Assembly (NCBI GenBank): GCA_041390625.1
Contig: JAWKPM010000010.1
Coordinates: forward strand, 42,514 to 106,513
Direction of reading: 5' to 3'
DNA from: Dehalococcoidia bacterium
GTDB taxonomy: Bacteria; Chloroflexota; Dehalococcoidia; UBA2979
DNA: 64,000 bases
Shown here: positions 1 through 64,000 of the stretch, piece by piece
Layout: each line of letters starts with the position of its first letter
Numbering within the stretch: the first letter of the stretch is position 1
The notes under the pieces: generated by a model
Told to the model about the DNA's origin: nothing
What the model saw: only the letters and a program-made list of their open reading frames with translations
Database searches by the model: none
Made by a program: the position numbers and the translations under genes

Positions 1-1
1 G

Positions 2-586
2 GCGCGGGGGACGTGGTGGAAGTCGCGCGACGTCATCAAGGTCAGCGGCATCGATCAGGTCTCGGAATCAATCACCCGTGTGACGGTCGACGACCTCGGG
101 TACGAAGCGGAGACCGCAGGCAAGCTCTGGTGGGTGCCTTACCGCATCGCGATGGCTTCATCGCAGGGCAACTCTCCCAGTCTGAGCATGCGTGTCCTCG
201 GCATTCCGCTGCCGGTGCCCAATTTCGCGGCGCGGCGCGGCGCGGCGGCCGTCCTGGGTGCGCTGCCGTACTGTCCATTCGCCCTCGACCATCCTTCGAT
301 TGCGTGGCGCGCGATCGATGACACATGCCTCGAGGCGAGCGGCACACAGGGTCGAGCGGGCCCGAAGTTCACGTACGAGATCGACGAGACGGGGCGGGTG
401 ATCGGCATCGCGCCTGAGTCGGCGCGCTTCCTTCCCGGCCAGCGGATGCACCTCCGAACATCAATCGCGAAGTACCACGAGCGAGACGGGGTTCGAGTGC
501 CGGCGGAGGCCACGCTGAACACCTCGGCCGGGCGTGAAACGAAACGGACCGCGATCACGGTGACCGACTCGGCGGTCATCCGATAG
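2..586 (+). CDS. Hypothetical protein, 5'-truncated; the reading frame is open from the window edge
   Basis: Frame 2 is open from base 2 with high GC3. It continues the 168-aa ORF track entry (80..586) upstream without a stop. No recognisable catalytic motif. Confidence 0.45.
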   Translation, partial: ARGTWWKSRDVIKVSGIDQVSESITRVTVDDLGYEAETAGKLWWVPYRIAMASSQGNSPSLSMRVLGIPLPVPNFAARRGAAAVLGALPYCPFALDHPSIAWRAIDDTCLEASGTQGRAGPKFTYEIDETGRVIGIAPESARFLPGQRMHLRTSIAKYHERDGVRVPAEATLNTSAGRETKRTAITVTDSAVIR

Positions 587-617
587 CAGGCCGCGAGCCG
601 AGAGCAAGGAGGCTCGA

Positions 618-1013
618 TTGAGGAGCGACGCGGTGATGCGGGTGGCGCGGCCGACGGACCACCTGAAGGCGGTCGCGGAGATGTACGCGCGCGGGCTGGG
701 CTTCGAGGTGCTGTCCTCGTTCGAGGACCACGAGGGGTTCGACGGGATCATCCTCGGGCGGGCGGGGCAGCCGTATCACCTCGAGTTCACCGCTCAGCGC
801 GGGCACGCGGTGGGGCGGGCACCGACCTCGGATCACCTTCTCGCGTTCTACCTGCCGGACGAGGCGGAGTGGCTCGCGACGTGCGAGCGGATGATCGCGG
901 CGGGGTTCCGGGAGGTCGCCTCGTACAACCCGTACTGGGACCTGCGCGGGCGGACGTTCGAGGACCTCGACGGCTATCACGTCGTGCTGCAAAACGAGGC
1001 GTGGACTCGGTAG
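618..1013 (+). CDS. VOC/glyoxalase-bleomycin-resistance family protein (YycE-like)
   Basis: 131 aa with a TTG start 5 nt after AAGGAGG (607-612). Sequence HLEF...HLLAFYL...YNPYWD is typical of the small VOC fold. Confidence 0.6.
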   Translation: MRSDAVMRVARPTDHLKAVAEMYARGLGFEVLSSFEDHEGFDGIILGRAGQPYHLEFTAQRGHAVGRAPTSDHLLAFYLPDEAEWLATCERMIAAGFREVASYNPYWDLRGRTFEDLDGYHVVLQNEAWTR

Positions 1014-1016
1014 AGG

Positions 1017-2938: not shown

Positions 2939-3169
2939 ATGCGAGTGGCCTTCGAGGTGCTGCTGCCGATCGTGGGCGTCGGGATCGCGGCGCTGGCGGT
3001 GGTGGCGGTGGCGGTGGTGCTGTTCTCGTATCACCCGCTGCTGATCTTCCTGCCGGTGGCGGTCGTGATCGGCGCCCTCATGCTGGTGGCGCGTCGCGAT
3101 CGGCGGCTGCAGGCGGAGGAACGACTGCGGGGCGAAGACGGGCCTCGACCGCCGAGCGCGCCTCGATGA
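2939..3169 (+). CDS. Small membrane protein with two TM helices (hypothetical)
   Basis: ATG at 2939 with strong GC3 bias. Very hydrophobic (VAFEVLLPIVGVGIAALAVVAVAVVLF...) with a charged C-terminus. Lies directly upstream of the radical SAM gene. Confidence 0.4.
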   Translation: MRVAFEVLLPIVGVGIAALAVVAVAVVLFSYHPLLIFLPVAVVIGALMLVARRDRRLQAEERLRGEDGPRPPSAPR

Positions 3170-3233
3170 CGGCTCCGAGCGGGGACGCGAGGCGTAGACT
3201 GGCCTCGATGGACCTTGTGACGACGGGAATTCG

Positions 3234-4877
3234 ATGACGGACGTCCGACAGCTGGCACGCGAGCGCCTGGAGCGGGAGCGCGGCTTCACGGTGAAGAACT
3301 GGGGCGGCCGCATCCCGGTCGCGATGGTGTACCCGAACTCGTACTACATCGGGATGTCGAACCTGGCGCTGCAGACGGTGTACGCGCTGTTCAATGCGTA
3401 CGACGACTTCGTGTGCGAGCGCGCCTTCTACGACCCGCCCGGCCGCGGCGGCCAGCACCCCGCACCGATCGTCTCGATGGAGTCGCAGCGCGGCCTCGGC
3501 GACTTCGCCGTCATCGCGTTCACGCTGTCGTACGAGTTCGACTACTTCAACATGGTGCAGGTGCTGAAGAGCGCCGGGATCCCGCTGCGCGCCGAGCAGC
3601 GGGACGAGCGCCATCCCCTCGTGATCGCGGGGGGTGCGTGCATGCTCACGAATCCCGCGGGGGTCGCGCCGTTCCTCGACGCCGCGATCGTGGGCGAGGG
3701 CGAGGAGATCGTGCCGGGCCTCGTGGGGGCGTGGCGCGAGGGGCTGTACGGCGACCGCGACGCCCTCCTCGATGAGATGGCCTCGATTCCCGGGGTGTAC
3801 GTGCCCTCGAGGCCGCCGGTCTTCGGTGCGATCGAACGCCAGTGGGTGCACGACATCGCGGGCACCGAGGCGTACTCGACGATCCTCACGGAGGACACCG
3901 AGCTCTCGAACATGACCCTCATTGAGTGCGCGCGCGGGTGCGGTCGCGGCTGCCGCTTCTGCATCGCTGGTTATGTCTTCCGTCCGCCTCGCTACCGTCC
4001 GACGGACGAGCTGCTGCGGATCGTCGAGCACTCGCTGGAGCACACGGAGCGTGTCGGACTCCTCGGTGCCGCCGTGGCGGACCACCCCGAGCTCTCGGAG
4101 CTCGTGATCCAGGCGCACGCGATGGGCGCGCGCGTCTCGATCTCCTCGCTGCGGGTGGACAACCTGCGGCCCGAGGTGCTGCGCGCGATCGCCGAGGGCG
4201 GCACGAAGACCGTGACGGTGGCGCCCGAAGCCGGGTCCGAGCGCATGCGGCAGGCGATCAACAAGGGCGTCTCGGAGGCGGAGATCCTCGCGGGCGCCTC
4301 GATGGTGGGTGAGTCGGGGGCGGCGCGCTTCAAGCTCTACTTCATGGCGGGGCTGCCGGGCGAAGAGGACGACGACGTCTACGCGATGGCGATGCTCGGC
4401 AACCGGATCAAGGAGCGCCTCGATGCCGCAGGGCGCGGCACGCGCCTCGTGATGTCGGTGAGCCCCCTCGTGCCGAAGCCGTGGACGGCGTACCAGTACC
4501 AGCCGGCGATCGACACCGCGAAGGTGAAGGGCCGGATGGGCATCCTGAAGCAGCACCTGGTGCCGGGCATCGAGCTGCGGGCGGACTCGCCGCTGACGGC
4601 GCGCGTCGACGACGTGCTGTCGCGGGCGGATGCGCGCCTCGCGGACATGCTCGAGGCGATGGAGGACAACTCGCTCGGGTCGTACCGGGCGGCGATCCGC
4701 GAGTTCGGCCTGGATGGCGAATTCCCCTGGGATGGGGAGCGGGCGCCGTGGCACATCGTGGACGTGGGGATGACGGAGCGCTTCCTGCTGCGCGAGATGG
4801 ACAAGCACGAGCGCGTGCGGCGCACGATCCCCTGCCCCCCGCCCGAGGTGGGCTGCAAGCTCTGCGGGGTCTGCTGA
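3234..4877 (+). CDS. Radical SAM domain protein (uncharacterised TIGR03960-like family)
   Basis: 547 aa. Has a CX3CX2C motif (ECARGCGRGCRFC) and a C-terminal cysteine cluster (CPPPEVGCKLCGVC). Confidence 0.8.
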   Translation: MTDVRQLARERLERERGFTVKNWGGRIPVAMVYPNSYYIGMSNLALQTVYALFNAYDDFVCERAFYDPPGRGGQHPAPIVSMESQRGLGDFAVIAFTLSYEFDYFNMVQVLKSAGIPLRAEQRDERHPLVIAGGACMLTNPAGVAPFLDAAIVGEGEEIVPGLVGAWREGLYGDRDALLDEMASIPGVYVPSRPPVFGAIERQWVHDIAGTEAYSTILTEDTELSNMTLIECARGCGRGCRFCIAGYVFRPPRYRPTDELLRIVEHSLEHTERVGLLGAAVADHPELSELVIQAHAMGARVSISSLRVDNLRPEVLRAIAEGGTKTVTVAPEAGSERMRQAINKGVSEAEILAGASMVGESGAARFKLYFMAGLPGEEDDDVYAMAMLGNRIKERLDAAGRGTRLVMSVSPLVPKPWTAYQYQPAIDTAKVKGRMGILKQHLVPGIELRADSPLTARVDDVLSRADARLADMLEAMEDNSLGSYRAAIREFGLDGEFPWDGERAPWHIVDVGMTERFLLREMDKHERVRRTIPCPPPEVGCKLCGVC

Positions 4878-4925
4878 GCGGGGCGCCTCCGCGCGGCGGC
4901 GGCCCGCCTCCGACCGGGACTGCCC

Positions 4926-6005
4926 ATGAAGTGGCTCGCGTTCCTCGGATTCCTGGTTGTGGCCTCGATGGTCGTGGGGTGCCGGGACGAGGACCTCGAC
5001 GGCGTCGAGCGCGCCTCGAGGGTTGCGGCGGCGCGGGCGGAGGCGGCGCGGCTCCACGAGGGGGCCTCGTTCGGGATTCAGCGGTGGAACGAAGTGGACT
5101 CGGTCGAGCCTCTGAACGAGGTGGCGGGGTTCGATGTCGTCGTGCCTCGAGGGTTGCCGGACGGGTTCACCGTCGACTGGGTCGTGGCGCAGCCGCCGGT
5201 CGTCGAGCCGAACGGCGGTCAGACGCTCACGATCGCAGTGGTGGCGGTCTCCGCGCGCGCCCGTGAAGGCGTGATCCAGGTGATCGAATCGAGCCGGCCG
5301 CCCGACGAAACCACTGCAGGCACGCAGGTCGCGATCGGCACGACGGTCGGTCGCCTGAGCTACCCACGCTCGGCGGGGGACGGGAGCCCGTTCGCCCAGG
5401 TGGCGTTCACGGGTTGCGGCCTCGGACTGGGGGTGACGACGTACAACCTCGAGACGGGGCCGACCTTCACTGCCGACGAGGTGGTCATCGTGGCGGAGGC
5501 GACGTTCGAGTCGTGTGACGCGGAGCCCGAGGGCGAGTCCCTCGACACACGCTACTTCGTCATCAAGCGTGACGACGCGGTGCCGGATCTGGCTGCGTTC
5601 GAGGCACAGATGGGCATCGACGTCACGCTGCCGACGTACCTGCCGGAACGCGTGACGCCACGTTTCCTCTACGGGTTCCCGTTGTTGCCCGGAACCGGCA
5701 GCAGGCGCGAGAGCCACAGTGTCGCGACGGTGTACGGGCTTGGAGCGAGCGGATCGTTCGTGCTCGCGCAGGAGAGCGCTCGCAACGAGATGGGCGAGGG
5801 CGAGGGCGTCGATGTTGGAGGCGTGCGGGGACACCTCGCGCGATTCGACCCGGCCGATGGTCGCCCGTGGCGACTGACGTGGGAGGCGTGCGACCTCGCG
5901 TTCTCGCTCGAAGTGCCGTCGTTCGATGGGGTGCCGGGTGCGAGCTCGCTCGCGGACGAGGAGCTGATTCGCATGGCGGCCTCGATCGTCGAGGGATGCG
6001 AATGA
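4926..6005 (+). CDS. Lipoprotein, two-repeat paralog family (LolA/DUF4367-like, tentative), copy 1
   Basis: Signal peptide plus lipobox (LVVASMVVGC). Has two internal repeats with the GFDVV.P.GLP / IDVTLPTYLP motif and a C-terminal ...AASIVEGCE. Paralogous to 7582-8664, 8730-9331 and 9979-10617. Confidence 0.7.
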   Translation: MKWLAFLGFLVVASMVVGCRDEDLDGVERASRVAAARAEAARLHEGASFGIQRWNEVDSVEPLNEVAGFDVVVPRGLPDGFTVDWVVAQPPVVEPNGGQTLTIAVVAVSARAREGVIQVIESSRPPDETTAGTQVAIGTTVGRLSYPRSAGDGSPFAQVAFTGCGLGLGVTTYNLETGPTFTADEVVIVAEATFESCDAEPEGESLDTRYFVIKRDDAVPDLAAFEAQMGIDVTLPTYLPERVTPRFLYGFPLLPGTGSRRESHSVATVYGLGASGSFVLAQESARNEMGEGEGVDVGGVRGHLARFDPADGRPWRLTWEACDLAFSLEVPSFDGVPGASSLADEELIRMAASIVEGCE

Positions 6006-6157
6006 CCTCGATGGGCCGATGGTGCTGAATCCGGGACTCGCGACGATGATCGTGGTAACTGACGAGTCTGACGGGCCTCGGTGGTGCGTCGGGGTCGATC
6101 ACGGCAGGGTGTCGCTTCTCGCCGGATGCGTCGCGCTGCCTCGATGCGGGGTGTCGC

Positions 6158-6805
6158 GTGACACAGTCGCCGGCCGGCACGGACGTTCCTGAGGGCGAGC
6201 TCGCCGACGGCGAACTCGTGCGGGTGGTGTACGTCACGGAGCCGGTGGAGCGGCCGTTCGTCGCGCGAGTGGAACACTCCTCGGCGGAGACGACCTCGAT
6301 CGATCTCTTCCGGCTGCCGGGGCGCCAGACGCCGCCGGGGCGCGGCGAGCCGATCGTGATCGTTGCGGACCACCGCACGCCTCGACGGGCGTTCGAGGCG
6401 CACGTGCTCGCGGTCCGGCCGACGCCGCCTCGAATGGAGGTGACGCGGCCGGTCGAGGCGCAGCGGGACGAGCGACGATCGGCGCCTCGGGTGCCGTACG
6501 TCCTCGAGTTCGAGGGCACCGTGCCGGGCGTCACCGGCGTGGCGAGCACGTTCCGCGGCAAGACGCAGGACCTCAGCCGGCGCGGCGCCGCCCTGAGCGC
6601 GGACATCGACCTCCCCCCGGACACGGAAGTGGCGCTGCACGTCCTGCTCGGCGACGAGAGCCCGCCGCTCGCGGTACAGGCGGTCACCCTGCCTCGGATC
6701 GCGCGCGGACGGGCGCGGGGGGCGCTGCGCGTGCGCTTCACCTCGGGCGATGGCGACGCGTTCGCACGCCTCGAGACGATGCTCGAGCAGGCCTCGGGCT
6801 CCTGA
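6158..6805 (+). CDS. PilZ domain protein (c-di-GMP receptor) with a ~100-aa N-terminal extension
   Basis: GTG start. PilZ signature RRSAPR ... DLSRRGAAL (RxxxR ... D/NxSxxG). Confidence 0.75.
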   Translation: MTQSPAGTDVPEGELADGELVRVVYVTEPVERPFVARVEHSSAETTSIDLFRLPGRQTPPGRGEPIVIVADHRTPRRAFEAHVLAVRPTPPRMEVTRPVEAQRDERRSAPRVPYVLEFEGTVPGVTGVASTFRGKTQDLSRRGAALSADIDLPPDTEVALHVLLGDESPPLAVQAVTLPRIARGRARGALRVRFTSGDGDAFARLETMLEQASGS

Positions 6806-6818
6806 TACCGCTTCGATG

Positions 6819-6839
6819 CCCGCCTCTTCTCGGGGCGGG
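6819..6839 (+). terminator. GC-rich hairpin (CCCGCC-N9-GGCGGG) 14 nt after the PilZ stop; no U-tract
   Basis: Inverted repeat read directly from the sequence. Lacks a T-run, so only terminator-like. Confidence 0.35.
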
Positions 6840-6989
6840 TGGGTTCGATCCCGCGGACCTCGACGCCCGGCCGAAGCGCCATGCATCGGCATCACGAATG
6901 AAGGTATAGACCATCACATTCCTGACGATGATCTGACATCCTGACGTCCATCTGACGTCCATTGCAGGTCGAGTCCGGGAGCGTCCCCC

Positions 6990-7529
6990 ATGCAAGTCGT
7001 GCTCTGCGATACGTGCCACCAACCCCTCGGCGGGCGAACCACCGAGATGCACCTGTTCTTCGGGGAGGCGTTCTCGACGCACGACGGTCGCGCTCGGGTG
7101 GCGCACCGCGGGACCTCGAAGGTGTTCAACCTCTGCCAGGGGTGCGGATCCTGGCTCGAGGGGGCGCTGAAGCACCTGCGCGCCTCACACGACCGCCGCA
7201 CGTCGCCTCGGATTCCCGTTGCCCTGGAAGTGGAGGGCATCGTCCTCGACCGAGCGGGGCTGGCGAGCACGTTCCACGCGCGGACGATCAACCTGAGCCA
7301 GGGCGGCGCCGCGCTTTCGACGAACGTCGACATCCCGGCGGGCACCGAGGTGATGCTCCGCTTCCTCGTTGTCGACAAGTCCTTCGAACTTCGAGCGGTG
7401 GCACTGCCTCGGATCGCACCGAGCGGGGATCCGCCGTTGCGTGTTCGCTTCACGGCGAACGACGACCGAGCGCTGGATTGCCTGGACCAGGTGCTGCGCG
7501 CGGCGGCGTCCGCCTCGAGGGCCGCGTAG
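6990..7529 (+). CDS. Zinc-ribbon-PilZ domain protein (c-di-GMP receptor)
   Basis: N-terminal CDTC...CQGC ribbon, then PilZ motifs RRTSPR ... NLSQGGAAL. Confidence 0.75.
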   Translation: MQVVLCDTCHQPLGGRTTEMHLFFGEAFSTHDGRARVAHRGTSKVFNLCQGCGSWLEGALKHLRASHDRRTSPRIPVALEVEGIVLDRAGLASTFHARTINLSQGGAALSTNVDIPAGTEVMLRFLVVDKSFELRAVALPRIAPSGDPPLRVRFTANDDRALDCLDQVLRAAASASRAA

Positions 7530-7581
7530 GCCCGGCCCGGCTCTACACTCCCCGCCACGATCGCGCAGGCCGGGAGGGCAC

Positions 7582-8664
7582 ATGACCGGGCGGAGCGGGG
7601 CGCTCGCGCTGCTGGGGTGCCTGGCGCTGGCCTCGATGCTCGCGGGGTGCCGCGACGAGGACCTCGATGACGTCGAGCGCGCCTCGAGGAACGAGGCGGC
7701 GCGGGCCGAGGCGGCACGGCTGCACGAGGGCGCCACGTACTTCCTGATGGACGTGGCAGAGCTCGATGGCGCGGCGGCGCTGAGTGCAGCCGTCGGCTTC
7801 GACGTCGTCATGCCCCGGGGGCTGCCGGAGGGCCTCGAGGTGAGCGTGGTCATCGGACAGGCGGCGCAGCCCTTCGATGGCGCGTCGTCGCCGGCACTGG
7901 CGAGCGTGACGATGTTCCGCCGTGGCATTGATGGCCTGGTGCAGCTGCTCGAGCTCGAGGGACCGATGGACCCGAGCACGGCCGGTGAGGACGTCGCCCT
8001 TGGTGACGGCGTCGGGCGCCTCGCGGAAGCAACCGGCGAGGGGTCGCCCGGCCGCTTCACCACGCTGACGTTCGAGGGGTGCGGCCTCACCCTCGCGATC
8101 TCGATGCTCGGGCTCGACGCCGAGGGCCCGCCGATCACGCGCGACCAGGCGATCGCGATGGGCACCGCGACGCGCGCCGGCTGCGCAGAACCGCTCCCGG
8201 AGACACCGGTCGTGCGGTACTTCCAGCAGCGACTGGTCGACCTGCCGGACCGTGCTGCCTTCGACGCGAGGGCGGGCTTCGATGTGGTCCTGCCCTCCTA
8301 CCTGCCGCCCGACGCGATGCCGACGTGGGTGACGGGACAGCCGTTCCTGCCCGGCTTCAACGGGGAGCCGGACGGCCGCGGGGCGCAGGCGGTGTACGGC
8401 CTCGATGGGGGGACGCTGCTGCTGACGGAGGGCACGAGACGCCTCGACGTCTCGGCGGGCACGGTGGTCGCGGTGGGCGACCGCAGCGGGCGGCTGCTGC
8501 GCGAGGCCTCGGAGGACGGGGTGCAGCTGATGCTGGCGTGGGAGGGCTGCGGCCTCGAGTTTGCTCTGACGGCGCTGTCGTTCAACGGGGCCGCGGACGG
8601 GCCGCCGCTCGACGAGACGGAACTCGTGCGCATCGCGGCATCGATGCTCGACGGGTGCGAGTGA
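7582..8664 (+). CDS. Lipoprotein, two-repeat paralog family, copy 2
   Basis: Internal ATG at 7582 preceded by GGGAGGG. Lipobox LASMLAGC. The first 25 mature residues are near-identical to copy 1 (CRDEDLD.VERASR..AARAEAARLHEGA). Repeats GFDVVMPRGLPEG and GFDVVLPSYLPPD. C-terminus IAASMLDGCE. Confidence 0.75.
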   Translation: MTGRSGALALLGCLALASMLAGCRDEDLDDVERASRNEAARAEAARLHEGATYFLMDVAELDGAAALSAAVGFDVVMPRGLPEGLEVSVVIGQAAQPFDGASSPALASVTMFRRGIDGLVQLLELEGPMDPSTAGEDVALGDGVGRLAEATGEGSPGRFTTLTFEGCGLTLAISMLGLDAEGPPITRDQAIAMGTATRAGCAEPLPETPVVRYFQQRLVDLPDRAAFDARAGFDVVLPSYLPPDAMPTWVTGQPFLPGFNGEPDGRGAQAVYGLDGGTLLLTEGTRRLDVSAGTVVAVGDRSGRLLREASEDGVQLMLAWEGCGLEFALTALSFNGAADGPPLDETELVRIAASMLDGCE

Positions 8665-8729
8665 CCTCGTTGGTGCGATTCATCCTCGAGGCGGACGCGA
8701 TGCTGCGCGGGCGGCCGTAGCCTCGAGGC

Positions 8730-9331
8730 ATGCGCGTCGCCTCGACGATCCCGGTGGTGCTGGCCTCGATGATCGTCCTCGGGTGCACGAGCGGCGGGGA
8801 TGGTGTGCCAGTGGCCGAGGACGCGACGTTCGAGTGGTGGGATGGGGAGCAGACGCACGCGCGGGTCCCGATCGAGGGCGGCCTCGATGGGGTGGCGGAG
8901 CGCCTCGAGTTTGAGCGGTGCTGCCCTCGGAACTGCCGCACGGGATGGAGTTGCGCTCCGTGCTCGCGATCGGGATGACGTTCGGCGATCAAACGGCACC
9001 AGGCCTGACCTCGGTGCAGCTCGAACTCCGCGACGACGAGAACGCACACCGTCTGTCGCTCGGGGAGCACCAAACGGAGCCGGGCCGGGGGCCGTCGCTC
9101 GCGTTGAACGGGGCGCGCGACGTCGAGATCGCGGGCGTCCCCGTGCGGCGGCACAATCGACCGCCGGAGCCAGGGTGGCCGGATGGCCTGCGCCTGGCCT
9201 CGTGGGTGGCGTGCGGGCTCGAGTTCGGCCTCGGGGGGCCGTTCACCGAGTTCAGCGGGCCGGAGTTCGAGGCGGTCGTGGCCTCGATCATCGAGGCGTG
9301 TGAGGGAGAGCGAGCCTCGGGGGTGCGTTGA
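8730..9331 (+). pseudogene. Frameshifted paralog of the lipoprotein family (single-repeat form)
   Basis: Signal peptide and lipobox (LASMIVLGC) in frame 3 to ~8900 (..LDGVAERLEFE). The homologous continuation (VLPSELPHGMEL ... VVASIIEACEGE) is in frame 2 (8918-9331). Implies a +/-1 frameshift near 8900-8930. Confidence 0.55.
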
Positions 9332-9425
9332 ACCTGTTCATACGTGATCGTTTCAACGTTGATCATAGTTTAGTGCCTGCTAATGTCACCTCGATGTTTT
9401 GACTGCTGCATCGATGGAGGCAGGT

Positions 9426-9938
9426 ATGCACGTTCGACTGATTCGCATCGGGGCGGTGGCCCTGATGCTCGCGACCGCCCTCGTGTTCGTCGGCTGCTCG
9501 GACGACGAGGCCGACGAGCCGGTGGCAGGCGGCGATCCAACGGCGGCCGCGGATCCCGAGGCCGACCCGGAGGCGGACCCGGTCGCCGGCGGCGGGCACG
9601 AGGTGGGGACGCTCACCAACTTCGACGAGACGGTCGAGGTCGACCTGATGGAGTGGGCCGTGAACCCTGACCGCGCCTCGGTGCCGGCCGGGCTCGTCCG
9701 CTTCGTGGCAACGAACGACGGCAGCGAGGTGCACGAGTTCGTGCTGATCGAGGGCACCTCGAAGGACGGCGAGGAGGTGACGGAGATCGAGGGCATCGCG
9801 CCGGGCGACAGCCGCGAGATTGCCGCCCGCCTCGAGCCGGGGACGTACCAGCTGGCGTGCCTGATCGTGGAGGTCGAGGGCGGTGAGACCGAGGACCACT
9901 ACGACCTCGGGATGCACATCGAGTTCACGGTGGAGTGA
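9426..9938 (+). CDS. Cupredoxin-like lipoprotein (EfeO-N-terminal 'Cup'-like), paralog of 53002-53703
   Basis: ATG at 9426 is 5 nt after GGAGG. Lipobox LVFVGC. The C-terminal ~100 aa align with the EfeU-coupled protein (EWAV.P....AG.VRFVA.N.....HE..L......LEPGTYQLACLI...GE.TEDHY..GMH.EFTVE). Confidence 0.7.
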   Translation: MHVRLIRIGAVALMLATALVFVGCSDDEADEPVAGGDPTAAADPEADPEADPVAGGGHEVGTLTNFDETVEVDLMEWAVNPDRASVPAGLVRFVATNDGSEVHEFVLIEGTSKDGEEVTEIEGIAPGDSREIAARLEPGTYQLACLIVEVEGGETEDHYDLGMHIEFTVE

Positions 9939-9978
9939 GCCCGCGCGCCTCGGCCTTCGATGTAGCATCGAGGGCGTG

Positions 9979-10617
9979 ATGATTGCGCGGTTCGCGGAGT
10001 GGCGGAGCGCCTCGGCGGTGGCCGGGGCGCTCGTCGTCTCCGCGCTGGCCTCGATGGTCGTGGCGTGCTCGGACGGCGGGGACGCTGGTGGCGTGCCGGT
10101 GGCCTCGGATGCCGCATTCATGGTGGTCGAGTCCGACGGGTCGAGACGGGCCGTCGATCACCTCGAGGCGTTGCTCGAGCTGGCAGCGTTCGAGGTGGTG
10201 CTTCCCGCCTCGCTGCCTGAAGGCGTCGAGCTGCAGAGCGCGCAGTTGACGCTGCCCGACCCTCGATTCGAGTCGATGGCGCCCTTCGCCCGAGCGCGCG
10301 CCACGCCGGTGCTTCTCAGCTTTCGGGGCCCCGGCGAGGATGCGGCGCGCGGCTTCGCGGTGATGGAGTACGAGGCCGCCGGCGGCAGTCCGACCACCAT
10401 CGGCGACGCAGGCGCGATCGCCTTCGAGCTGCCCGGTGCCGAGGGTGCTCAACTCCTCGACCTGCCGCTCGATGGCAGGCGAGCGCAGTCGGGGACGTCC
10501 GTCGTGTGGCGCGCGTGTGGCGTCGACTTCGCATTGACAGCGCCGGGGTCAGACGTGATGCCTCGGGAGGAGGTGCTCGACCTCGCGCAGGCGTTCATCA
10601 CGGGGTGCGGGTCGTGA
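9979..10617 (+). CDS. Lipoprotein paralog, single-repeat form (copy 4)
   Basis: Lipobox LASMVVAC. Repeat motif LAAFEVVLPASLPEGVEL. Conserved C-terminus LDLAQAFITGCGS. Confidence 0.7.
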   Translation: MIARFAEWRSASAVAGALVVSALASMVVACSDGGDAGGVPVASDAAFMVVESDGSRRAVDHLEALLELAAFEVVLPASLPEGVELQSAQLTLPDPRFESMAPFARARATPVLLSFRGPGEDAARGFAVMEYEAAGGSPTTIGDAGAIAFELPGAEGAQLLDLPLDGRRAQSGTSVVWRACGVDFALTAPGSDVMPREEVLDLAQAFITGCGS

Positions 10618-10643
10618 GGTCGCGGCTGGGGTAGCATCGCGGC

Positions 10644-11357
10644 ATGACGGCCGTCGTGTCGGAAGTACGTGAGCGGGTGGCGGCGGTGCGTGCGCGCATC
10701 GAGGCGGCGTGCGCGCGGGCGGGGCGCGACCCGGGCGAGGTGACACTCATCGCGGTGTCGAAGACGTTCGGCCTCGATGCGGTGGAGGCGGCGCTCGAGG
10801 CCGGGATCACCGACTTCGGAGAGAACCGGGCGCAGCAGCTGGTGCCGAAGGCGGAAGGCGCGGCCTCGATGGGGTTGCGGCCTCGATGGCACTTCATCGG
10901 ACACCTGCAGCGGAACAAGGCACGCGACGTCGTACCGCACATCGTGGCGCTGCACTCGGTCGACTCGCCACGCCTCGTGACGGCGATCTCGCGAGAAATC
11001 ATGCGCATCGGCGAGCATGGGGCGGCTGCCGATGCGGCAGGGTCGTTGCGCTGTTACCTTGAGGTGAACGTGGCCGGTGAGGCCTCGAAGGAGGGCGTGG
11101 CGCCGGACGCGCTGCCGGCGCTCCTCGAGGCGGCGCGGGCCGCGGACGGCGTCGAGGTCGCGGGGCTGATGACGGTGGCCCCGCTGGCGGCCTCGGCGGA
11201 GGCGGCGCGGCCGGTGTTCGCGGCGCTGCGGGAGCTGGCGAGGTCGCACGGCCTCGATGGGCTCTCGATGGGGATGACGAACGACTTCGAGGTCGCGATC
11301 GAAGAGGGCGCGACCATGGTGCGGGTGGGGCGCGCGATCTTCGGGGAGCGCGACTAG
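10644..11357 (+). CDS. YggS-family pyridoxal-phosphate homeostasis protein (PLPBP)
   Basis: Full-length match to the YggS/PROSC pattern (VTLIAVSKT...GENRAQ...[10 protein letters not shown]...[10 protein letters not shown]). Confidence 0.9.
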
Positions 11358-11399
11358 CCTCGCGATCGGGCCGGGTGAGACGGGACTCGAGGTAGCGTC

Positions 11400-13140: not shown

Positions 13141-14292
<1,152 letters not shown>

Positions 14293-54792: not shown

Positions 54793-55698
54793 CTAGTCCT
54801 CGGAGCCGCGGAGGAACTGCTCGATGTCGCGCAGCAGCTCATCGGGAGCGGGCAGCTCGGCTGTCTCGCCCTCGGCGGGCGTGGGGCCACCGCCGGCGGC
54901 CGCGACGACCGAGTCGTACTGGTCCTCCATCTGCTCGACGGCGCGACGGAGGTCGCTGGAGCGCTCCATCTCCTCGTTCGCGCGCTCGCGCAGTTCGTCG
55001 GCGTGCTGGCGCAGCTCGTCCATCGAGGTCTCGGTGCCGGCGATGCGGTCGAGGGCCTCGGTGAGGGCGACCATCGCGAAGGGGTTGGGCACGACGCCGA
55101 GGTAGTTCGGGACGATCGCGCCGAGGCCGGCCGTCACGCCGCCGGACTGTGCGAAGAGCGTGCTGACGAGGCCACCGAAGTCGACGGGGCCCTCGTAGCG
55201 GGTGATCTGCGGGGTGCGACCGAGCCTCGATGCGACCGCCTCGTCGTTGGTGGTGAGGCGGATGATCGAGGGCTTCGTGTGCGGCACGGGCGCGGGCCAG
55301 GTGCGGAGGACGACGAGCGACCCCACCTTGTGCTCGGTGAGCAGGGCGACGATCGAGCCGGCGAAGGCGGGCCAGCGCAGGTGCGGCTCGATGCCGGCGA
55401 GCGTCAGGATGTCGGGCCGGTCGGGGCTCGAGGGGAGCAGTCGCACCTCGTTCTGCGGCCAGTCGACGACGCGTTCGTCATCGACGAGTCGCACGGTCGG
55501 GGGCATGACGGTGAAGTCGTAGAACTCGTCGGGCGGTATGTCTGCGACCACCTCGGCGTGGTGGGCGAGCTCGAACTGGTTCAGGGTGGCGGCGGCCGTC
55601 GAGTTGTAGCCGTTCTTGCGGATGAACGTCAGGATGGCGATCGGGTCGCGCAGCTCGCCGAGCTCACGACGCAACTGCAGGGACGAACGTTCGAGCAT
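54793..55698 (-). CDS. PAC2-family protein
   Basis: 301 aa. PAC2 pattern with a charged C-terminal tail. Confidence 0.7.
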   Translation of the reverse strand: MLERSSLQLRRELGELRDPIAILTFIRKNGYNSTAAATLNQFELAHHAEVVADIPPDEFYDFTVMPPTVRLVDDERVVDWPQNEVRLLPSSPDRPDILTLAGIEPHLRWPAFAGSIVALLTEHKVGSLVVLRTWPAPVPHTKPSIIRLTTNDEAVASRLGRTPQITRYEGPVDFGGLVSTLFAQSGGVTAGLGAIVPNYLGVVPNPFAMVALTEALDRIAGTETSMDELRQHADELRERANEEMERSSDLRRAVEQMEDQYDSVVAAAGGGPTPAEGETAELPAPDELLRDIEQFLRGSED

Positions 55699-55848
55699 GG
55701 TGACGGGCCTCCCGCCGGCCTCGATACCGGCAACCGGGCATCGAGGTCCATCCCCAAGTGTGGTCGAGCGCGGTGATGGCGTCGAGAGGGAAGGCCCGCA
55801 CGGCTTCGGACGGCCCGCGTCAGCCCTCGGCGAGGTCTCCCGAAGGTG

Positions 55849-56244
55849 CTAGTTCGTGGCGGGCGCGGGATCGCCGAGGGCGGGCGCGCTCGTGCGGCGG
55901 TCCTTCGAGCGCGAGGCCGGCGCCGGCGCGGCGGCTGCGCGGTACCGCGAGATGGCGCGGTCGAGGAGGGTCTCGGCGAGGGTCAACGCCTCGATCTCAG
56001 CGCGGGCGGAGGCGCGGAGGCGGTCGGTACGCACCAGCTCGACGACACCTTCGACATCGAGGGCCAGTCGGTCACCGGCGTCGGTGCGCTGGAGCGGCGC
56101 CGGGCGTTGGCGGCGCAGGTGCGGCCTCGGGAGGCTGACGCGCGAGCGGCCGAGAGAGATGGCGCCCAGCAGCAGCACGACGAGCGTCGCGGCGCCGCCG
56201 GCGGCGGCGATCACGAGGGGACCGCTCAGCGTTCCTTCGTCCAC
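55849..56244 (-). CDS. Membrane-anchored hypothetical protein (N-terminal TM, C-terminal helix)
   Basis: GTG 6 nt after GGGAG. LVIAAAGGAATLVVLLLGAISL is a single TM segment. Confidence 0.45.
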   Translation of the reverse strand: MDEGTLSGPLVIAAAGGAATLVVLLLGAISLGRSRVSLPRPHLRRQRPAPLQRTDAGDRLALDVEGVVELVRTDRLRASARAEIEALTLAETLLDRAISRYRAAAAPAPASRSKDRRTSAPALGDPAPATN

Positions 56245-56413
56245 AGTCGACTCCCGCCGAGGCGCGTCGAGCGCCAGCGCCCCGCCTCGGATGTCCGAGC
56301 GCGGGGCTGCCAATCAGTCACGTTGTCCACGGGACTTGTACACGGTGGCGGGAGCGGTTGTCCACAACGATTCGTGGACCGGCGCGGCGGGGCGCCCTCG
56401 GGACGAAGCCGGG

Positions 56414-56728
56414 CTAGGCGGCCTCGTCGGAGAGGCGGAAGTCGCCGCGCTGGCGGGCGAGCGAGCGCTCGAGGCTCGCGACCTCGCCATCGACGGGCGG
56501 CTTCTCCGGCGCGGCATCCGAGGCCCACTCGGCGGACTCGGTGCTGTTCGGGAACTGCTTCTCCTCGTTGCAGGAGCGGCAGCGACCGAGGCTGAACGGG
56601 CCGTTCGGCGGCTCAATCACCCAGTGATGGGCGTGGGAGGGCCGGATGGGAACGGGCACAGCCTCGGTCGCCGGCGCGGTGACCGCCTCGGCGGTCGCGA
56701 TGGAGTCGACTGGGGTGGGAGCGTCCAA
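56414..56728 (-). CDS. Hypothetical CxxC-containing small protein
   Basis: 104 aa. HHWVIEPPNGPFSLGRCRSCNEEKQFPNS. Confidence 0.45.
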   Translation of the reverse strand: MDAPTPVDSIATAEAVTAPATEAVPVPIRPSHAHHWVIEPPNGPFSLGRCRSCNEEKQFPNSTESAEWASDAAPEKPPVDGEVASLERSLARQRGDFRLSDEAA

Positions 56729-56773
56729 CGACTCAATCCTCTCGATTGTGGCGGGTGGTCCTGGCGCGGCCGG

Positions 56774-57826
56774 CTAGAAGCCGAAGCCGCTGGTCATGAG
56801 CTCGGTCACGTCGGTGACCTCGCCCGGGGACGGCAGCGTTACGTCGACCGGAACGCCGAAGTCGAAGAAGTCGTAGCGGAACTCGAAGCGGGCGCCGGCA
56901 GCGCTCGGGTCGAAGACGCCGAGGTCGAGGTTCATGGCGAAGCGGCGCGTCAGGCCGTCGGAGTCGACCCACACCTCGAGGGGCAGCACGAAGTCGAACA
57001 TGCCCATCTGCTCGTACTGCCACTCGAGCTGGCTCTGCATCGAGGGGTCGATGAGCTCGAACAGCTTCTCGAAGGAGAGCGTGCCGGCCCAGTGGGTCGT
57101 CGGGACGCCGCGCACGTCCTCGAAGCCGACCTCCTCGAAGGAGTCGAGCAGGTCGAGGAGCGGGAGGAAGCTATTCGGGCCGTAGGCGAACGCGTTCTCG
57201 AGACCCGAGCCCTGCAGCCCCTCGAGGGGGACGGCGTTCGTGGGCGCAGCCATCGAGATCCACGGGGTATCGACGCCGAACGCCGTGCCGAAGAAGGGCG
57301 CGTACATGTAGGTCGTGGTGCCGTCGGTGACGACCTCGAAGGTGCCGTTGCCGAACATCGCATCGAGCTCGGCGGCCTCGGCGGCGGTGAGCTCGTAGCG
57401 GAGCGCGTCGAACAGGCTCGAGAAGTCCATGCTCATGTGGCTGCGGCCACTGACGAGGTCGGTCGCCCCCTCGCCGGAGAAGGTCATGGCGCCACCAGGG
57501 AAGTCCGGAATGCCGCCGATCGACATCGCGAAGTCGTAGTGCATGGTCTGCTGGGCGAAGGCGACCTCGGCGGCACGTCGTGCGACCTCGATCTGCGCAG
57601 CGGCCTCGGCGGGCGACTTCTCGCCGGTGGCGGCGCGCACGCCGGCGCCGGACGAGGCCGGCGAGCTCGTGGCATTCGCAGCGGACGGCGCAGTCGAGGA
57701 CGCGCCCTCGGTGGCGGCGGCGGCCTCGGGTGACGGCGACGGCGTCGAGGTGGCCTCGGAGCCGCCGGTGCAGGCGGCGAGCAGGAGGGCCAGCCCCCCG
57801 AGGAGGGCGGTCGTGGTTCGTCGCAT
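56774..57826 (-). CDS. Lipoprotein (hypothetical) with Ser/Ala/Thr-rich linker
   Basis: MRRTTTALLGGLALLLAACTGGS lipobox. ATG after GGGAAGG. Confidence 0.65.
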   Translation of the reverse strand: MRRTTTALLGGLALLLAACTGGSEATSTPSPSPEAAAATEGASSTAPSAANATSSPASSGAGVRAATGEKSPAEAAAQIEVARRAAEVAFAQQTMHYDFAMSIGGIPDFPGGAMTFSGEGATDLVSGRSHMSMDFSSLFDALRYELTAAEAAELDAMFGNGTFEVVTDGTTTYMYAPFFGTAFGVDTPWISMAAPTNAVPLEGLQGSGLENAFAYGPNSFLPLLDLLDSFEEVGFEDVRGVPTTHWAGTLSFEKLFELIDPSMQSQLEWQYEQMGMFDFVLPLEVWVDSDGLTRRFAMNLDLGVFDPSAAGARFEFRYDFFDFGVPVDVTLPSPGEVTDVTELMTSGFGF

Positions 57827-60922: not shown

Positions 60923-60932
60923 GGAGGACACG

Positions 60933-62135
60933 ATGACCAGACGTCGAGTCCTGTTCGTCGACGACGAGCCTCGTGTGCTGCGAGGTCTGCGGCGTCTGCT
61001 CGACCCGATGCGGGACGAGTGGGAAATCTCCTTCGCGGAGTCGGGCGCCGAGGCCCTCGACAAGCTGAGCGAGGCCGAGTTCGATGCCGTCGTCACCGAC
61101 ATGCGCATGCCGGGCATGGATGGCGCCGAGCTGCTGCACGAGGTGCTGCGCCGCCACCCACACACCGTGCGCATCGTGCTGTCCGGTCAGTCCGACCAGG
61201 AGACGCGGCTGCGCGCGGCCGGCCCGACGCACCAGTTCCTCACGAAGCCCTGCGACGAAGAGACGCTGCGGCGCACCCTCACCCGGGCGTGCGACCTGCG
61301 CGATCTGCTGCGTCGCGACTCCCTGCGCAGGCTCGTGGGGCAGCTGAAGACGCTGCCGAGCCTCGGGACGGTGCAGCGCGACCTGCGCACGGAGCTGATG
61401 TCGCCCGACCCCTCAATGCGGAAGGTGGGGGATCTCATCTCGCAGGACGTCGCGATGACGGCGAAGGTCCTGCAGCTCGTGAACTCGTCCTTCTTCGGCG
61501 CGCCGAAGCGCGTGGGCTCGGTGTCCGAGGCCGTGCTGATGCTCGGGCTGAACGTCATCCGCGACCTGATGCTGACCGAGTCCGTCTTCGGGGCGTACAT
61601 GGCCGACGGCGCGCTCGAGCTCGTCGAGCCGATTCGCGACCACAGCGACTTCGTGGGCGGCCTCGCGTACGAGATCGCGGCCGCCGAGGGCGCCGACCTG
61701 CAGGTGCGCGGCGACGCGCAACTCGCGGGACAGCTGCACGATGCCGGCGCGCTCGTGCTCGCGGCGAACATGCCGATGGAGTTCCGCAAGGCGGCGGCCG
61801 TCGCGCGCATGCGCAACATCGAGCGTTGGCAGGGCGAGGTTGAGCTCTTCGGCGCCGACCACGGCGAGGTGGGCGCGTACCTCCTCGGCATCTGGGGCAT
61901 CCCCGACCCGATCGTGGAGGCCGTGGCGTTCCACCACCGCCCGGCGCAGGCGCCGACGCATGGCTTCACGCCGCTCACCGCCGTGCACGTCGCCGACGCG
62001 CTGGCTCACGAGGTCGACGGGCAGGATGACTCCGTGCTCGTCACCTCGGTGGACGAGGAGTACCTCGAGCGGCTGGGGCTGCTCGACCGCCTCGATGGCT
62101 GGCGACTGCTCGCACTCAAGCGCAAGGCCGCCTAA
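60933..62135 (+). CDS. Response regulator, REC + HDOD output domain
   Basis: VLFVDDEP...DAVVTDMRMPGMDG (phospho-Asp context) followed by an HDOD-like domain. Confidence 0.8.
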   Translation: MTRRRVLFVDDEPRVLRGLRRLLDPMRDEWEISFAESGAEALDKLSEAEFDAVVTDMRMPGMDGAELLHEVLRRHPHTVRIVLSGQSDQETRLRAAGPTHQFLTKPCDEETLRRTLTRACDLRDLLRRDSLRRLVGQLKTLPSLGTVQRDLRTELMSPDPSMRKVGDLISQDVAMTAKVLQLVNSSFFGAPKRVGSVSEAVLMLGLNVIRDLMLTESVFGAYMADGALELVEPIRDHSDFVGGLAYEIAAAEGADLQVRGDAQLAGQLHDAGALVLAANMPMEFRKAAAVARMRNIERWQGEVELFGADHGEVGAYLLGIWGIPDPIVEAVAFHHRPAQAPTHGFTPLTAVHVADALAHEVDGQDDSVLVTSVDEEYLERLGLLDRLDGWRLLALKRKAA

Positions 62136-62173
62136 CGGCGGCCCTGCGGCTTAGTCAAGACTGGCTGGCGGCG

Positions 62174-63745
62174 CTACAGCGTCGGCGGGGCCTCGGGCTG
62201 GTCCGTCGGTGGCGCCTCGGACGGGGCGGGCGCCGGCGGGATGATGGCATCGCGCACCGAGCTGCCGCCGGGGATCTCACCCTTCCGCACGAGGCCGATC
62301 AGATCGACCAGTGTGACGCCGATGGTCTGCTTGAGCGCCTCGTCGGTGGCCATCAGCGCCTGCGGCGTGAGACCGAAGAGCTGATGCACCGGCGAGTCGG
62401 CGCCGTTCGAGCCGGAGCCGTTGCCACCGAAGTTCACGAGCCGGATCTCGTTCACCTGGCCGATCGGTGAGGCCGCGGCCGTCACGATCTCGGGCAGGCG
62501 GTCGATGAGGTCCGTCGAGAGCTGCACGCGGATCGCCTCGTCGGAGTACTGCTTCAGGGCCTCGGCGCGCTCGGCGAGACCGTTCGCCTCGGCGACAAGC
62601 TTGGCCTGCGTGGCGAACGCCTCGGCGTCACCCTTGTCGCGTGTCCCCTGCGCCTCACCCTCGGCCTCGAGGACGGTGGCGCGCTTGGTGGCGTCGGCGC
62701 GGCGGATGCGGGCCTCGGCCTCCGCCTCGGCGGCGAGGATCTGAGCCTGCTTGCGCGCCTCCGCCTCGAGGATCTGGCGCTGCTTCTCCGCCTCGGCGAT
62801 GGCGACCACCTCGGCCTCGAGCTCCTGGCGGCGCTGCTGTGCGCGGCGCTGCGCGAGGTGCGTCTCCGCCTCGGCAACCTGCTGCTTCGCCTCGGCCTCC
62901 GCCTGCTCGGCGGCCTGGAGGGCGCGCGCCTGCTCCGCGGTGGTGAGCGCCTGGTACTGCGCCATTTGCACGTCGCGGTTCTTCACAGCCTCGGCGATGG
63001 AGGCGTCGGCATCGGCGTTGGCGCGCTCCGCCTGCTGGCGGGCGTTTGCCTCGCGAACACTGGCCTCGCGGTCGGCGTCAGCCTCGCCGATGCGAGCGTC
63101 GCGCTTGACCTCGGCCGTGCGCTTGCGACCGAGCGCGTCGAGGTAGCCGACCTCGTCGCTGATCTCGCGCAGCGTGAGCGTGTCGAGGGTGATGCCCATC
63201 TGGGAGAGCTCGGCCTGGGCCTGCTCGGCGATCTGGGACTGGAAGGCCGTGCGGTCCTGGTAGATCTCTTCCGGCGTCAGCTGGCCGCAGACGCCTCGCA
63301 GGTGGCCCTCGAGGACGGCCTGGACGTCGCGCTCGATCTCCTCGCGACGGCGGCCGAGGTAGCGCTCGGCAGCGTTCATGATGCCGAGGTCGTCACTCGA
63401 GACCTTGAAGAGTGCGGTGCCCACCACTGTCAGCGGCACGCCCTCCTTCGAGATCGCATTGTGGGTACGGACCTCGGTGCTGATGACGTGCAGCGACATG
63501 CGCTGGTACTGCTCGACGATCGGGAAGACGAACGCGCCACCGTTGCGGACGATGCGGTAGCCGACCGTCTGGCGGCTGCCGTCAGCGCCTCGAATGTTGT
63601 GGCGGCGGCCCGAGATGACGATGACCTCGTCCGGCCCGGCGCGGCGGTAGCGGTTGGCCCAGGTGCCGAGGATCGCCGCGAAGACGACGACCAGGATCGA
63701 GACGATGACGCCGATGCCGGCGTTCAGACCCACATCGAAGTTCAC
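62174..63745 (-). CDS. Flotillin-family SPFH/band-7 protein (FloT/YuaG-like)
   Basis: GTG start in a GTGA overlap with the NfeD-like stop. N-terminal hairpin, SPFH domain, and a long Ala/Glu-rich coiled coil (EA repeats). Confidence 0.85.
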   Translation of the reverse strand: MNFDVGLNAGIGVIVSILVVVFAAILGTWANRYRRAGPDEVIVISGRRHNIRGADGSRQTVGYRIVRNGGAFVFPIVEQYQRMSLHVISTEVRTHNAISKEGVPLTVVGTALFKVSSDDLGIMNAAERYLGRRREEIERDVQAVLEGHLRGVCGQLTPEEIYQDRTAFQSQIAEQAQAELSQMGITLDTLTLREISDEVGYLDALGRKRTAEVKRDARIGEADADREASVREANARQQAERANADADASIAEAVKNRDVQMAQYQALTTAEQARALQAAEQAEAEAKQQVAEAETHLAQRRAQQRRQELEAEVVAIAEAEKQRQILEAEARKQAQILAAEAEAEARIRRADATKRATVLEAEGEAQGTRDKGDAEAFATQAKLVAEANGLAERAEALKQYSDEAIRVQLSTDLIDRLPEIVTAAASPIGQVNEIRLVNFGGNGSGSNGADSPVHQLFGLTPQALMATDEALKQTIGVTLVDLIGLVRKGEIPGGSSVRDAIIPPAPAPSEAPPTDQPEAPPTL

Positions 63746-64000
63746 GAGACATCCTCCACTGCCGCGACGATGCATTCGCCCGCCACGACCGACTGGACGG
63801 TCACGAGCTCACCGGCGCCGATCGCCTGGTGGCTTCCCGAACGGGCGGCAGCGGAGTGCGTGCCACCCGCGCGTTCGAACTGGATACGTCCGACACCCGC
63901 CGCGGGGATCGCGAGCGTGACGCGGACCTGCGCGCCGATGAGATCGGCGAGCGCGAAGTTGGAGGAGACCTCCTGCTTCATGAAGAAGCGCGTCATGGCG
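63742..64000 (-). CDS. NfeD-like protein (OB-fold C-terminal domain), probably 5'-truncated by the window edge
   Basis: C-terminal beta-barrel pattern (GAQVRV...GRIQFERAGGTHSAAARSG...GELVTVQSVVAGE). The frame is still open at base 64000. Classic nfeD-floT pairing. Confidence 0.6.
   Translation of the reverse strand, partial: AMTRFFMKQEVSSNFALADLIGAQVRVTLAIPAAGVGRIQFERAGGTHSAAARSGSHQAIGAGELVTVQSVVAGECIVAAVEDVS

Follow-up and report, generated by a model that had tools for sequence, protein, structure and literature searches.

Why does a 64,000-nucleotide stretch of a metagenome-assembled Dehalococcoidia genome (contig JAWKPM010000010.1, positions 42,514 to 106,513; hereafter the window) carry so many copies of one octamer, CCTCGATG, and why do most of them lie on the same strand? 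An exact search finds 62 copies on the plus strand and 19 on the minus strand, where a copy appears as CATCGAGG when the plus strand is read. These 81 copies, 76.5% of them on the plus strand, amount to 1.27 per kb, or about one every 0.8 kb. The analyses described below lead us to the view that the octamer is best explained as a word peculiar to this lineage, maintained in the DNA at about one copy per kb and with a preference for the strand rich in G, which we presume to be the leading one. As to what such a word might do, our best reading, held tentatively and by analogy with better known systems, is that of a Chi-like signal, in competition with a neutral sequence bias that has to be taken seriously.

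How unusual is the octamer? With the window's GC content of 69.3%, base composition predicts about one copy per strand, the same expectation as in an earlier note on this DNA, which had put the GC content too high, at about 72%. One hundred dinucleotide-preserving shuffles contained 5.2 +/- 2.1 copies on both strands combined, with a maximum of 10, and Markov models predict 2.5 (order 1), 17.5 (order 3) or 25.8 (order 4) copies on the plus strand, where 62 are observed. Among all octamers it ranks first for over-representation against the order-4 model (z = 7.1), and it is also the top octamer against synonymous-codon shuffles (z = 13.8). A maximal-order Markov test was uninformative because the octamer accounts for 70–78% of the occurrences of its own 7-mers, so that the model absorbs the signal. 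The over-representation and strand asymmetry described in the earlier note are therefore confirmed, and the former is stronger than it had appeared: the 40–50 plus-strand and fewer than 10 reverse copies reported there captured the asymmetry but fell short of the true numbers on both strands, and the exact count against a Markov expectation that the note had called for yields both strong enrichment and unequal strands.

Single-base variants are much rarer, except for the palindrome CCTCGAGG (56 on each strand), CCTCGACG (35 plus, 16 minus) and CCTCGGTG (27 plus, 8 minus). Flanking bases are unconserved apart from a preference for G at position -1, found in 29 of the 62 plus-strand copies versus 3 of the 19 minus-strand copies. 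Nothing is conserved outside 8–11 nt, and 60 of the 81 copies are genic, in all frames, a pattern that does not fit a dispersed repeat of the repetitive extragenic palindrome or miniature inverted-repeat transposable element kind. The earlier note was right that the word occurs in all three reading frames and in intergenic DNA, and we find it in genes of both orientations; the intergenic copies placed there at 19815, 20055, 44536 and 58085 exist but start 2–8 bases away, at 19813, 20062, 44544 and 58092. A full-text literature search for the octamer itself returned primer lists only, and scans of metagenomes and viruses with the pattern CCTCGATGN{1,30}CCTCGATG gave, among the matches listed, almost only background loci.

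What places the word inside genes? The 60 genic copies comprise 39 in sense and 21 in antisense orientation. Sense copies read C-CTC-GAT-G (Leu-Asp, 25 copies), CC-TCG-ATG (Ser-Met, 11) or CCT-CGA-TG (3), and 18 of the 21 antisense copies read C-ATC-GAG-G (Ile-Glu). We counted the positions at which the protein sequence permits the octamer by synonymous choice, and used as controls 14 high-GC loci from distant genomes (RecA identity at most 72% to the RecA of the window). Leu-Asp-G sites bear the octamer in 20 of 41 cases (49%) in plus-strand genes and in 5 of 14 in minus-strand genes, versus 6 of 210 (3%) in the controls; for Ile-Glu-G sites the figures are 14 of 15 in minus-strand genes, where the word falls on the plus strand, 4 of 12 in plus-strand genes and 32 of 84 in the controls. 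The codon GAT makes up 15% of Asp codons overall, and in the context CTC-GAx-G its share is 57% in plus-strand and 53% in minus-strand genes, compared with 14% in the controls. At orthologous sites in a relative, L081, the Leu-Asp pair is usually kept while the codons differ at positions 1, 4 and 7 of the octamer. The convergence of all three free positions argues that the whole word is favoured, and would not be produced by one mutation type or one base-calling error; these data show that the octamer is created by synonymous codon choice at all three free positions.

Two simpler causes were considered and rejected. One C>T change at CCTCGACG, whether a mutation or a miscall, does not suffice as the main cause, as differences from orthologues fall at positions 1, 2, 4, 7 and 8; that L081 conserves a tryptophan encoded by one copy and carries the copy within recA unchanged also argues against an origin by miscalling. 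A peptide or lipoprotein-signal cause fails because only 11 of the 39 sense copies read Ser-Met, with 3–4 in paralogous signal peptides, which agrees with the earlier view that the 'ASM' signal motif alone does not explain the word.

Does the strand preference simply follow the direction of the genes? In our gene map, built with a codon-usage model and with orientation backed by Pfam hits for most genes, plus-strand genes cover 26.6 kb and minus-strand genes 27.3 kb; with lengths so nearly equal, gene orientation alone cannot give a 3:1 strand ratio. The genic copies, compared with expectations from synonymous shuffles, are distributed as follows:

Plus-strand genes, sense: 3.2 expected, 30 observed.
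Plus-strand genes, antisense: 4.8 expected, 4 observed.
Minus-strand genes, sense: 2.5 expected, 9 observed.
Minus-strand genes, antisense (copies falling on the plus strand): 8.3 expected, 17 observed.

Intergenic DNA, about 10 kb by the gene map, adds 15 copies on the plus and 6 on the minus strand, and at about 2 per kb is richer in the word than coding DNA. In a logistic model of 131 synonymous-potential sites, in which each site received a baseline probability according to codon usage among genes of the same orientation, the odds ratio was 8.6 for the word lying on the plus strand (likelihood ratio p = 1e-5) and 2.0 for its lying in the sense direction (p = 0.3). The strand term holds when confident genes only are used, and also beyond 20 kb, where minus-strand genes predominate (p = 0.004–0.017). 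A pure transcription-sense model is rejected by the strand term and by minus-strand genes having more antisense than sense copies; an orientation that follows transcription, one of the outcomes that the earlier note had named as refuting its proposal, is thus not what we see. When the same strand test was applied to 515 frequent octamers, CCTCGATG ranked second, between CTCGATGA and GCCTCGAT, both of which overlap it, and nearly all other top-ranked words contain CCTCG, mostly as GCCTCG, on the plus strand. The statistic is somewhat over-dispersed across octamers (99th percentile 13.7), and the empirical p, about 0.004, should therefore be preferred to 1e-5. By raw skew the word is again second among frequent octamers, the other top words being G-rich (e.g., GGCGGCGG), and its plus-strand share of 76.5% exceeds the 48% that a first-order Markov model predicts (p = 3e-7). 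Taken together, these results show that strand polarity within the window is independent of transcription.

Which strand is favoured? GC skew is positive (G over C on the plus strand) in all sixteen 4-kb sub-windows, and third-position GC skew on the plus strand is about +0.05 in plus-strand genes and about +0.25 in every minus-strand gene. This pattern fits a replication-linked component of about +0.15 over the whole window, with no inverted segment, for which reason we take the plus strand, the G-rich one, as presumably the leading strand and the window as lying on one replichore. The octamer is C-rich, so the surplus of G on that strand cannot be what brings it there. Recently inverted segments as the origin of the minus-strand copies were rejected on the uniformity of the third-position skew. 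The strand-specific codon usage of this genome is pronounced: between plus- and minus-strand genes of equal length, CGG occurs 214 versus 42 times, CTG 413 versus 275, CCC 102 versus 204 and TCC 67 versus 136, and the two gene orientations are about 0.3 apart in third-position GC skew.

The signal is not confined to the eight bases. Enrichment over synonymous shuffles, for the plus strand of coding DNA, grows from 1.8-fold for CCTCG through 2.0-fold for CCTCGA and 2.8-fold for CCTCGAT to 4.1-fold for the full octamer. GCCTCG is the commonest hexamer of the window (268 on the plus versus 139 on the minus strand) and the most strand-biased one beyond codon usage (219 versus 120 in coding DNA, where 100 per strand are expected; p = 8e-8), and CCTCG is the most strand-biased pentamer. 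Longer forms are more one-sided still:

GCCTCGATG: 29 on the plus strand, 3 on the minus strand (91% on the plus strand).
GGCCTCGATG: 16 on the plus strand, none on the minus strand.
GCCTCGATGG: 14 on the plus strand, none on the minus strand.
GGCCTCGATGG: 10 on the plus strand, none on the minus strand.

The octamer is thus the extreme member of a lineage-specific (G)CCTCG word family, whose most polar forms are GCCTCGATG and GGCCTCGATGG. Other words of the window also deviate. CCTCC/GGAGG, CTCC/GGAG and G runs are strongly depleted in coding DNA relative to synonymous shuffles (CCTCC 52 versus 137, GGGGG 59 versus 159), with similar depletion of CCTCC and GGGG in the distant high-GC controls, and the triplet-repeat word GACGACGA is highly skewed (31 versus 5).

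How far does the word extend among relatives? We compared loci around recA, or, for L332, the locus of a CoA-transferase gene, and scored the Leu-Asp-G sites that carry the octamer:

L205 (RecA 84%): 5 of 15 sites.
L204 (RecA 85%): 3 of 7 sites.
L081: 4 of 23 sites.
L327: 1 of 24 sites.
L330: 1 of 15 sites.
L331: 1 of 11 sites.
L332: 0 of 18 sites.

Enrichment of CCTCG words is distributed among the relatives in the same way and is absent from the distant high-GC controls. Several independent assemblies thus bear out the enrichment, which two to three close relatives share and which is confined to a narrow clade. A separate pattern concerns the XhoI site CTCGAG, which in coding DNA of L327, L330 and L331 occurs 9 times versus 24 expected, with CCTCGAGG at 1 versus 4, whereas the window, L204 and L205 have an excess of both; this suggests that the L327/L330/L331 group may possess a CTCGAG-specific restriction system.

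Where in the window do the copies lie? The groupings that stand out are these:

3161–20069, plus strand: the densest zone; the first 20 kb hold 33 plus and 6 minus copies, 1.95 per kb versus 0.95 per kb elsewhere (Poisson p = 0.007).
3201–12914, plus strand: the 11-mer GGCCTCGATGG nine times, out of ten in the window, with starts at 3201, 4961, 8398, 8880, 10047, 10862, 10879, 11250 and 12904.
27515 (start), plus strand: the tenth copy of that 11-mer.
4934–5070 and 7602–7738, plus strand: paralogous N-terminal regions, 84% identical, with a related segment at 10042–10075; the octamer lies in the Ala-Ser-Met frame.
10860–10872 and 10877–10889, plus strand: the 13-mer GCGGCCTCGATGG twice, 17 nt apart, within a yggS-like gene.
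12882–12913, plus strand: two exact octamers, at 12882 and 12906, flanking CCTCGGTG at 12897–12904, between divergent genes, some 230 nt upstream of recA.
13599–13606, plus strand: the copy within recA (13141–14292), GCC CTC GAT GTG, Ala-Leu-Asp-Val.
53484–53617, plus strand: three copies, at 53484, 53499 and 53610, antisense in a minus-strand cupredoxin-like gene and reading Ile-Glu; they belong to the 14 of 15 Ile-Glu-G sites of minus-strand genes that have the octamer on the plus strand.
55021–57045, minus strand: four copies, at 55021, 55739, 56055 and 57038, in minus-strand genes.

The genes of the densest zone are a radical-SAM gene, a 5.8-kb lineage-specific insertion, yggS-proC-yggT, recA, recX and the genes for RNase Y and ymdB. 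Around the GGCCTCGATGG copies nothing is conserved past the 11-mer, and their contexts are unrelated. The GCGGCCTCGATGG pair is read as Ala-Ser-Met (10864) and then as Pro-Arg-Trp (10881) within the same gene, just as the earlier note had it, and the tryptophan is kept in L081. The 'three copies' that it placed at 12882–12920 prove to be two exact plus-strand copies and the one-mismatch word CCTCGGTG. The recA copy is the only one found at the same position in L081 by orthologous alignment; recA of L204 and of L205 each carries a plus-strand copy as well. The RecA encoded in the window is 100% identical to an NCBI protein from a metagenome-assembled Dehalococcoidia bacterium, and a strain with 98% identity is known too (P0241). 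In a repeat search, the only non-independent copies were those in paralogous lipoprotein-like signal peptides (LASMVV..GC) at 4956, 7624 and 10042. We considered the minus-strand run at 55021–57045 as an inverted segment and rejected this, the third-position GC skew there being the same as elsewhere.

The insertion in the densest zone, about 5.8 kb at 4926–10617 between the radical-SAM and yggS-like genes, is absent at that position in the relatives; its products include a PilZ-domain protein, a cupredoxin-like protein and a set of paralogues that bear lipoprotein-like signal peptides. The insertion contains 10 plus-strand octamers and is as dense in them as the conserved recA neighbourhood, so that the preference for the core genome expected of Chi sites is not seen in this one window, which is a weak test. 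Within a poorly resolved stretch at 8.7–9.4 kb, CCTCGATCATCGAGG (9289–9303) is a 15-bp palindrome in which two 7-nt arms of the octamer are arranged about one central base. Two stretches, 20070–23490 and 40442–44543 (3.4 and 4.1 kb), have no copy on either strand and correspond to the two bins of lowest GC content (66.3% at 20–24 kb, 66.9% at 40–44 kb); the former, which follows a tRNA-Asp gene, may be a recently acquired island.

What could maintain such a word? Chi and KOPS (FtsK-orienting polar sequences) share a statistical definition, namely over-representation together with a skew that exceeds the prediction from GC skew (PMC3384302), and candidate Chi motifs have been sought by over-representation combined with polarity (PMC8022716). 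In E. coli, Chi occurs 4–8-fold more often than by chance, once per 4.5 kb, with 75% of sites on the leading strand; Chi sequences vary between taxa, skew is not universal, and those experimentally established come from only a few Proteobacteria and Firmicutes (PMC5959072). The rank-1 over-representation of our octamer, its 76.5% skew and its enrichment on the other strand as well make its profile nearer to Chi than to KOPS. We know of no Chi sequence in Chloroflexota. As a Chi-like signal, the octamer would be read as single-stranded DNA by an AddAB-type helicase–nuclease resecting a broken end toward the origin; its recognition would switch the enzyme from degradation to RecA loading, and selection would favour an abundance of copies oriented so as to protect replication forks that have collapsed. 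That any protein recognizes the octamer is inferred. An AddAB-type enzyme is predicted for the source genome from the gene content of its relatives: L327 has, on a 2.57-Mb contig and about 2.7 kb downstream of recA-recX, an AddA-like/AddB-like gene pair (13849–20270, minus strand) encoding proteins of 1097 aa (UvrD helicase and PD-(D/E)XK nuclease) and 1043 aa (PD-(D/E)XK), respectively, and AddA-like homologues, often named 'helicase/nuclease subunit A', are widespread in metagenome-assembled genomes of Dehalococcoidia and Chloroflexota.

Several observations weigh against the Chi-like reading. No AddAB, RecBCD or FtsK gene is found among the genes of the window, and the octamer is 4–6 times denser than Chi in E. 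coli. In L205, L204 and L081 the enrichment is equal on both strands, with no polarity in loci of 8–21 kb; these loci are short and their GC skew is weak, which makes them only moderate evidence against a conserved polar function. Enrichment is lacking in L327, L330 and L331, the RecA proteins of which are only slightly more diverged, and in L332, compared through its CoA-transferase locus, and L327 has the AddAB-like genes; if the octamer is a Chi site, its specificity would have to have changed within the group. Enrichment and polarity extend to the whole CCTCG family and could thus reflect a context bias instead of a discrete site. The clustering of GGCCTCGATGG in one 10-kb stretch is not what a genome-wide signal predicts. 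Part of the skew is generic, an order-4 Markov model already predicting a 65:35 split (observed versus that, p = 0.035). The Chi- or KOPS-like interpretation offered in the earlier note accordingly holds up with respect to over-representation and transcription-independent polarity, and suffers from the absence of polarity in relatives and from a signal that is not confined to the octamer.

The closest rival is a neutral by-product, in which a lineage-specific, context-dependent bias of codon usage, mutation or repair favours CCTCG words, and CCTCGATG most of all, while strong strand asymmetry generates the polarity and no protein reads the word. The graded enrichment across the family, the standing of GCCTCG and CCTCG as the most strand-biased hexamer and pentamer, the relatives that are enriched without polarity, the extreme strand-specific codon usage (CGG, CTG and the third-position skew), a strand statistic broader across octamers than chi-square and the local clustering of the 11-mer all point that way. 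Such a bias would nevertheless have to bring three synonymous positions to the same word by differing changes (G>C, G>C and C>T), to place a C-rich word on the G-rich strand and to exceed models that already include strand-specific codon usage; the highest density lies in intergenic DNA, and distant high-GC genomes have no such context effect. On balance we think a purely neutral origin somewhat unlikely, but it remains a serious rival. An artefact or trivial cause (systematic miscalling at a methylated site of a single assembly, a repeat element present in several copies, or a motif at the peptide level) is by comparison very hard to sustain and has the least to recommend it. The window does come from a metagenome-assembled genome, the octamer differs by a single base from CCTCGAGG, an abundant palindrome, and from CCTCGACG, and three copies sit in the paralogous signal peptides; against this, the recA copy is identical in the L081 alignment, where the tryptophan encoded by another copy is conserved too, independent assemblies of relatives, including the SPAdes-style contig L204, have the octamer in recA and show an elevated density of it, and the copies have unrelated flanks in all frames, both gene orientations and intergenic DNA.

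Could the octamer instead orient an FtsK/SpoIIIE translocase toward dif during chromosome segregation, in the manner of KOPS or SRS (SpoIIIE recognition sequences)? Polarity independent of transcription would be expected of such a word, the extended forms GCCTCGATG (91%), GGCCTCGATG (16:0) and GGCCTCGATGG (10:0) reach KOPS-like skew, and KOPS motifs vary from phylum to phylum and are sometimes frequent, GAAGAAG of L. lactis occurring once per 2.1 kb (PMC3384302). Known KOPS are, however, highly skewed (79–91% genome-wide) and modestly over-represented, with ranks in the thousands and about 3,700th in E. coli (PMC3384302), whereas our octamer ranks first and its skew of 76.5% is under the known 80–91%. 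Moreover, wrong-way copies should be selected against, yet the octamer is enriched on the opposite strand (9 sense copies in minus-strand genes versus 2.5 expected, and 5 of 14 Leu-Asp sites there versus 3% in controls), so that reverse copies are not rare as in KOPS. A role of this kind strikes us as improbable. More improbable again is a molecular drive by DNA uptake, in which a naturally transformable lineage would preferentially take up and recombine DNA bearing the octamer. A density of about one per kb, like that of the Haemophilus uptake signal sequence (USS) and the Neisseria DNA uptake sequence (DUS), the narrow phylogenetic range, its entry into coding sequence in every frame through synonymous and conservative substitutions and the higher density in intergenic DNA would suit it. 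A 62:19 polarity with an odds ratio of 8.6 is unexpected for a signal taken up as duplex, though, and neither inverted terminator pairs (the distance between neighbours on opposite strands is never less than 72 nt, the nearest pairs being 72–100 nt apart) nor an extended flanking consensus nor, within the 64-kb window, genes for uptake machinery were found.

The surroundings of recA offer some further observations. About 90–120 nt upstream of its start lie two palindromes resembling Gram-positive-type LexA boxes, CGAACACATGTTTG (13022–13035) and CGAACACCCGTTCG (13040–13053). In the window recA and recX (15307–15825) are separated by a plus-strand open reading frame (ORF) without Pfam match (14319–14855) and a short minus-strand ORF (14891–15160), while recX directly follows recA in L081, L204, L205 and L327. 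The tRNA-Asp gene at 20179–20255 was confirmed by both ARAGORN and Rfam; a tRNA-Val called by ARAGORN at 1791–1872 is probably a false positive, since it falls below the threshold of the Rfam tRNA model and lies inside a minus-strand ORF (1582–2196).

What would follow if the Chi-like reading were correct? One may go further and propose that a narrow, uncultured, high-GC clade of Dehalococcoidia recently evolved its own C-rich, strand-polar signal with CCTCGATG as core and GGCCTCGATGG as full form, unrelated to known Chi or KOPS and recognized by an enzyme that co-evolves with it, of the AddAB type or of another kind that scans single strands; this fuller proposal is speculative, and we regard it as rather doubtful. 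If true, a signal of this sort would for the first time be documented beyond Proteobacteria and Firmicutes, and the birth of a new specificity would be traceable across genera, given relatives that lack either enrichment or polarity. The apparent gradient, with relatives that lack the enrichment, others that have it without polarity, and finally the window with both, could show how such signals arise, and the octamer provides a concrete sequence to test against the AddAB-type enzyme or FtsK of an uncultured lineage. Should a neutral context bias be the cause, the case would counsel caution in motif-based prediction of Chi and KOPS in strongly strand-asymmetric genomes.

How, finally, does the word compare with the known classes of short genomic signals? 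Uptake sequences such as the Haemophilus USS and the Neisseria DUS occur at about one per kb, about equally on both strands and often as inverted pairs in terminators. Like those of Pasteurellaceae and Neisseriaceae, the octamer is lineage-specific, found in genes in several frames and denser intergenically; unlike them, it is distributed 62:19 and forms no inverted pairs. Words that orient FtsK or SpoIIIE (KOPS, SRS and other architecture-imparting sequences) include GGGNAGGG, GAGAAGGG and GAAGAAG of L. lactis. The octamer shares with them a polarity that tracks the inferred replication strand and not transcription, with 9–11-mers that are 91–100% one-stranded, but known KOPS are rich in purines, are spaced about 10–20 kb apart in most species and do not rank at the top for over-representation (PMC3384302). 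As in Chi sites, the word is short, non-palindromic and significantly over-represented, among the most so of its length, lies to about 75% on the G-rich strand as E. coli Chi does and is frequent in genes through codon choice, and AddAB-type enzymes exist in the same bacterial class. Known Chi sites are GCTGGTGG in E. coli, AGCGG in B. subtilis, GCGCGTG in L. lactis and GAAGCGG in S. aureus; the octamer differs from these in its unrelated sequence, C-rich where they are G-rich, in an enrichment limited to a very narrow clade and in the shorter (G)CCTCG core that is enriched alongside it.

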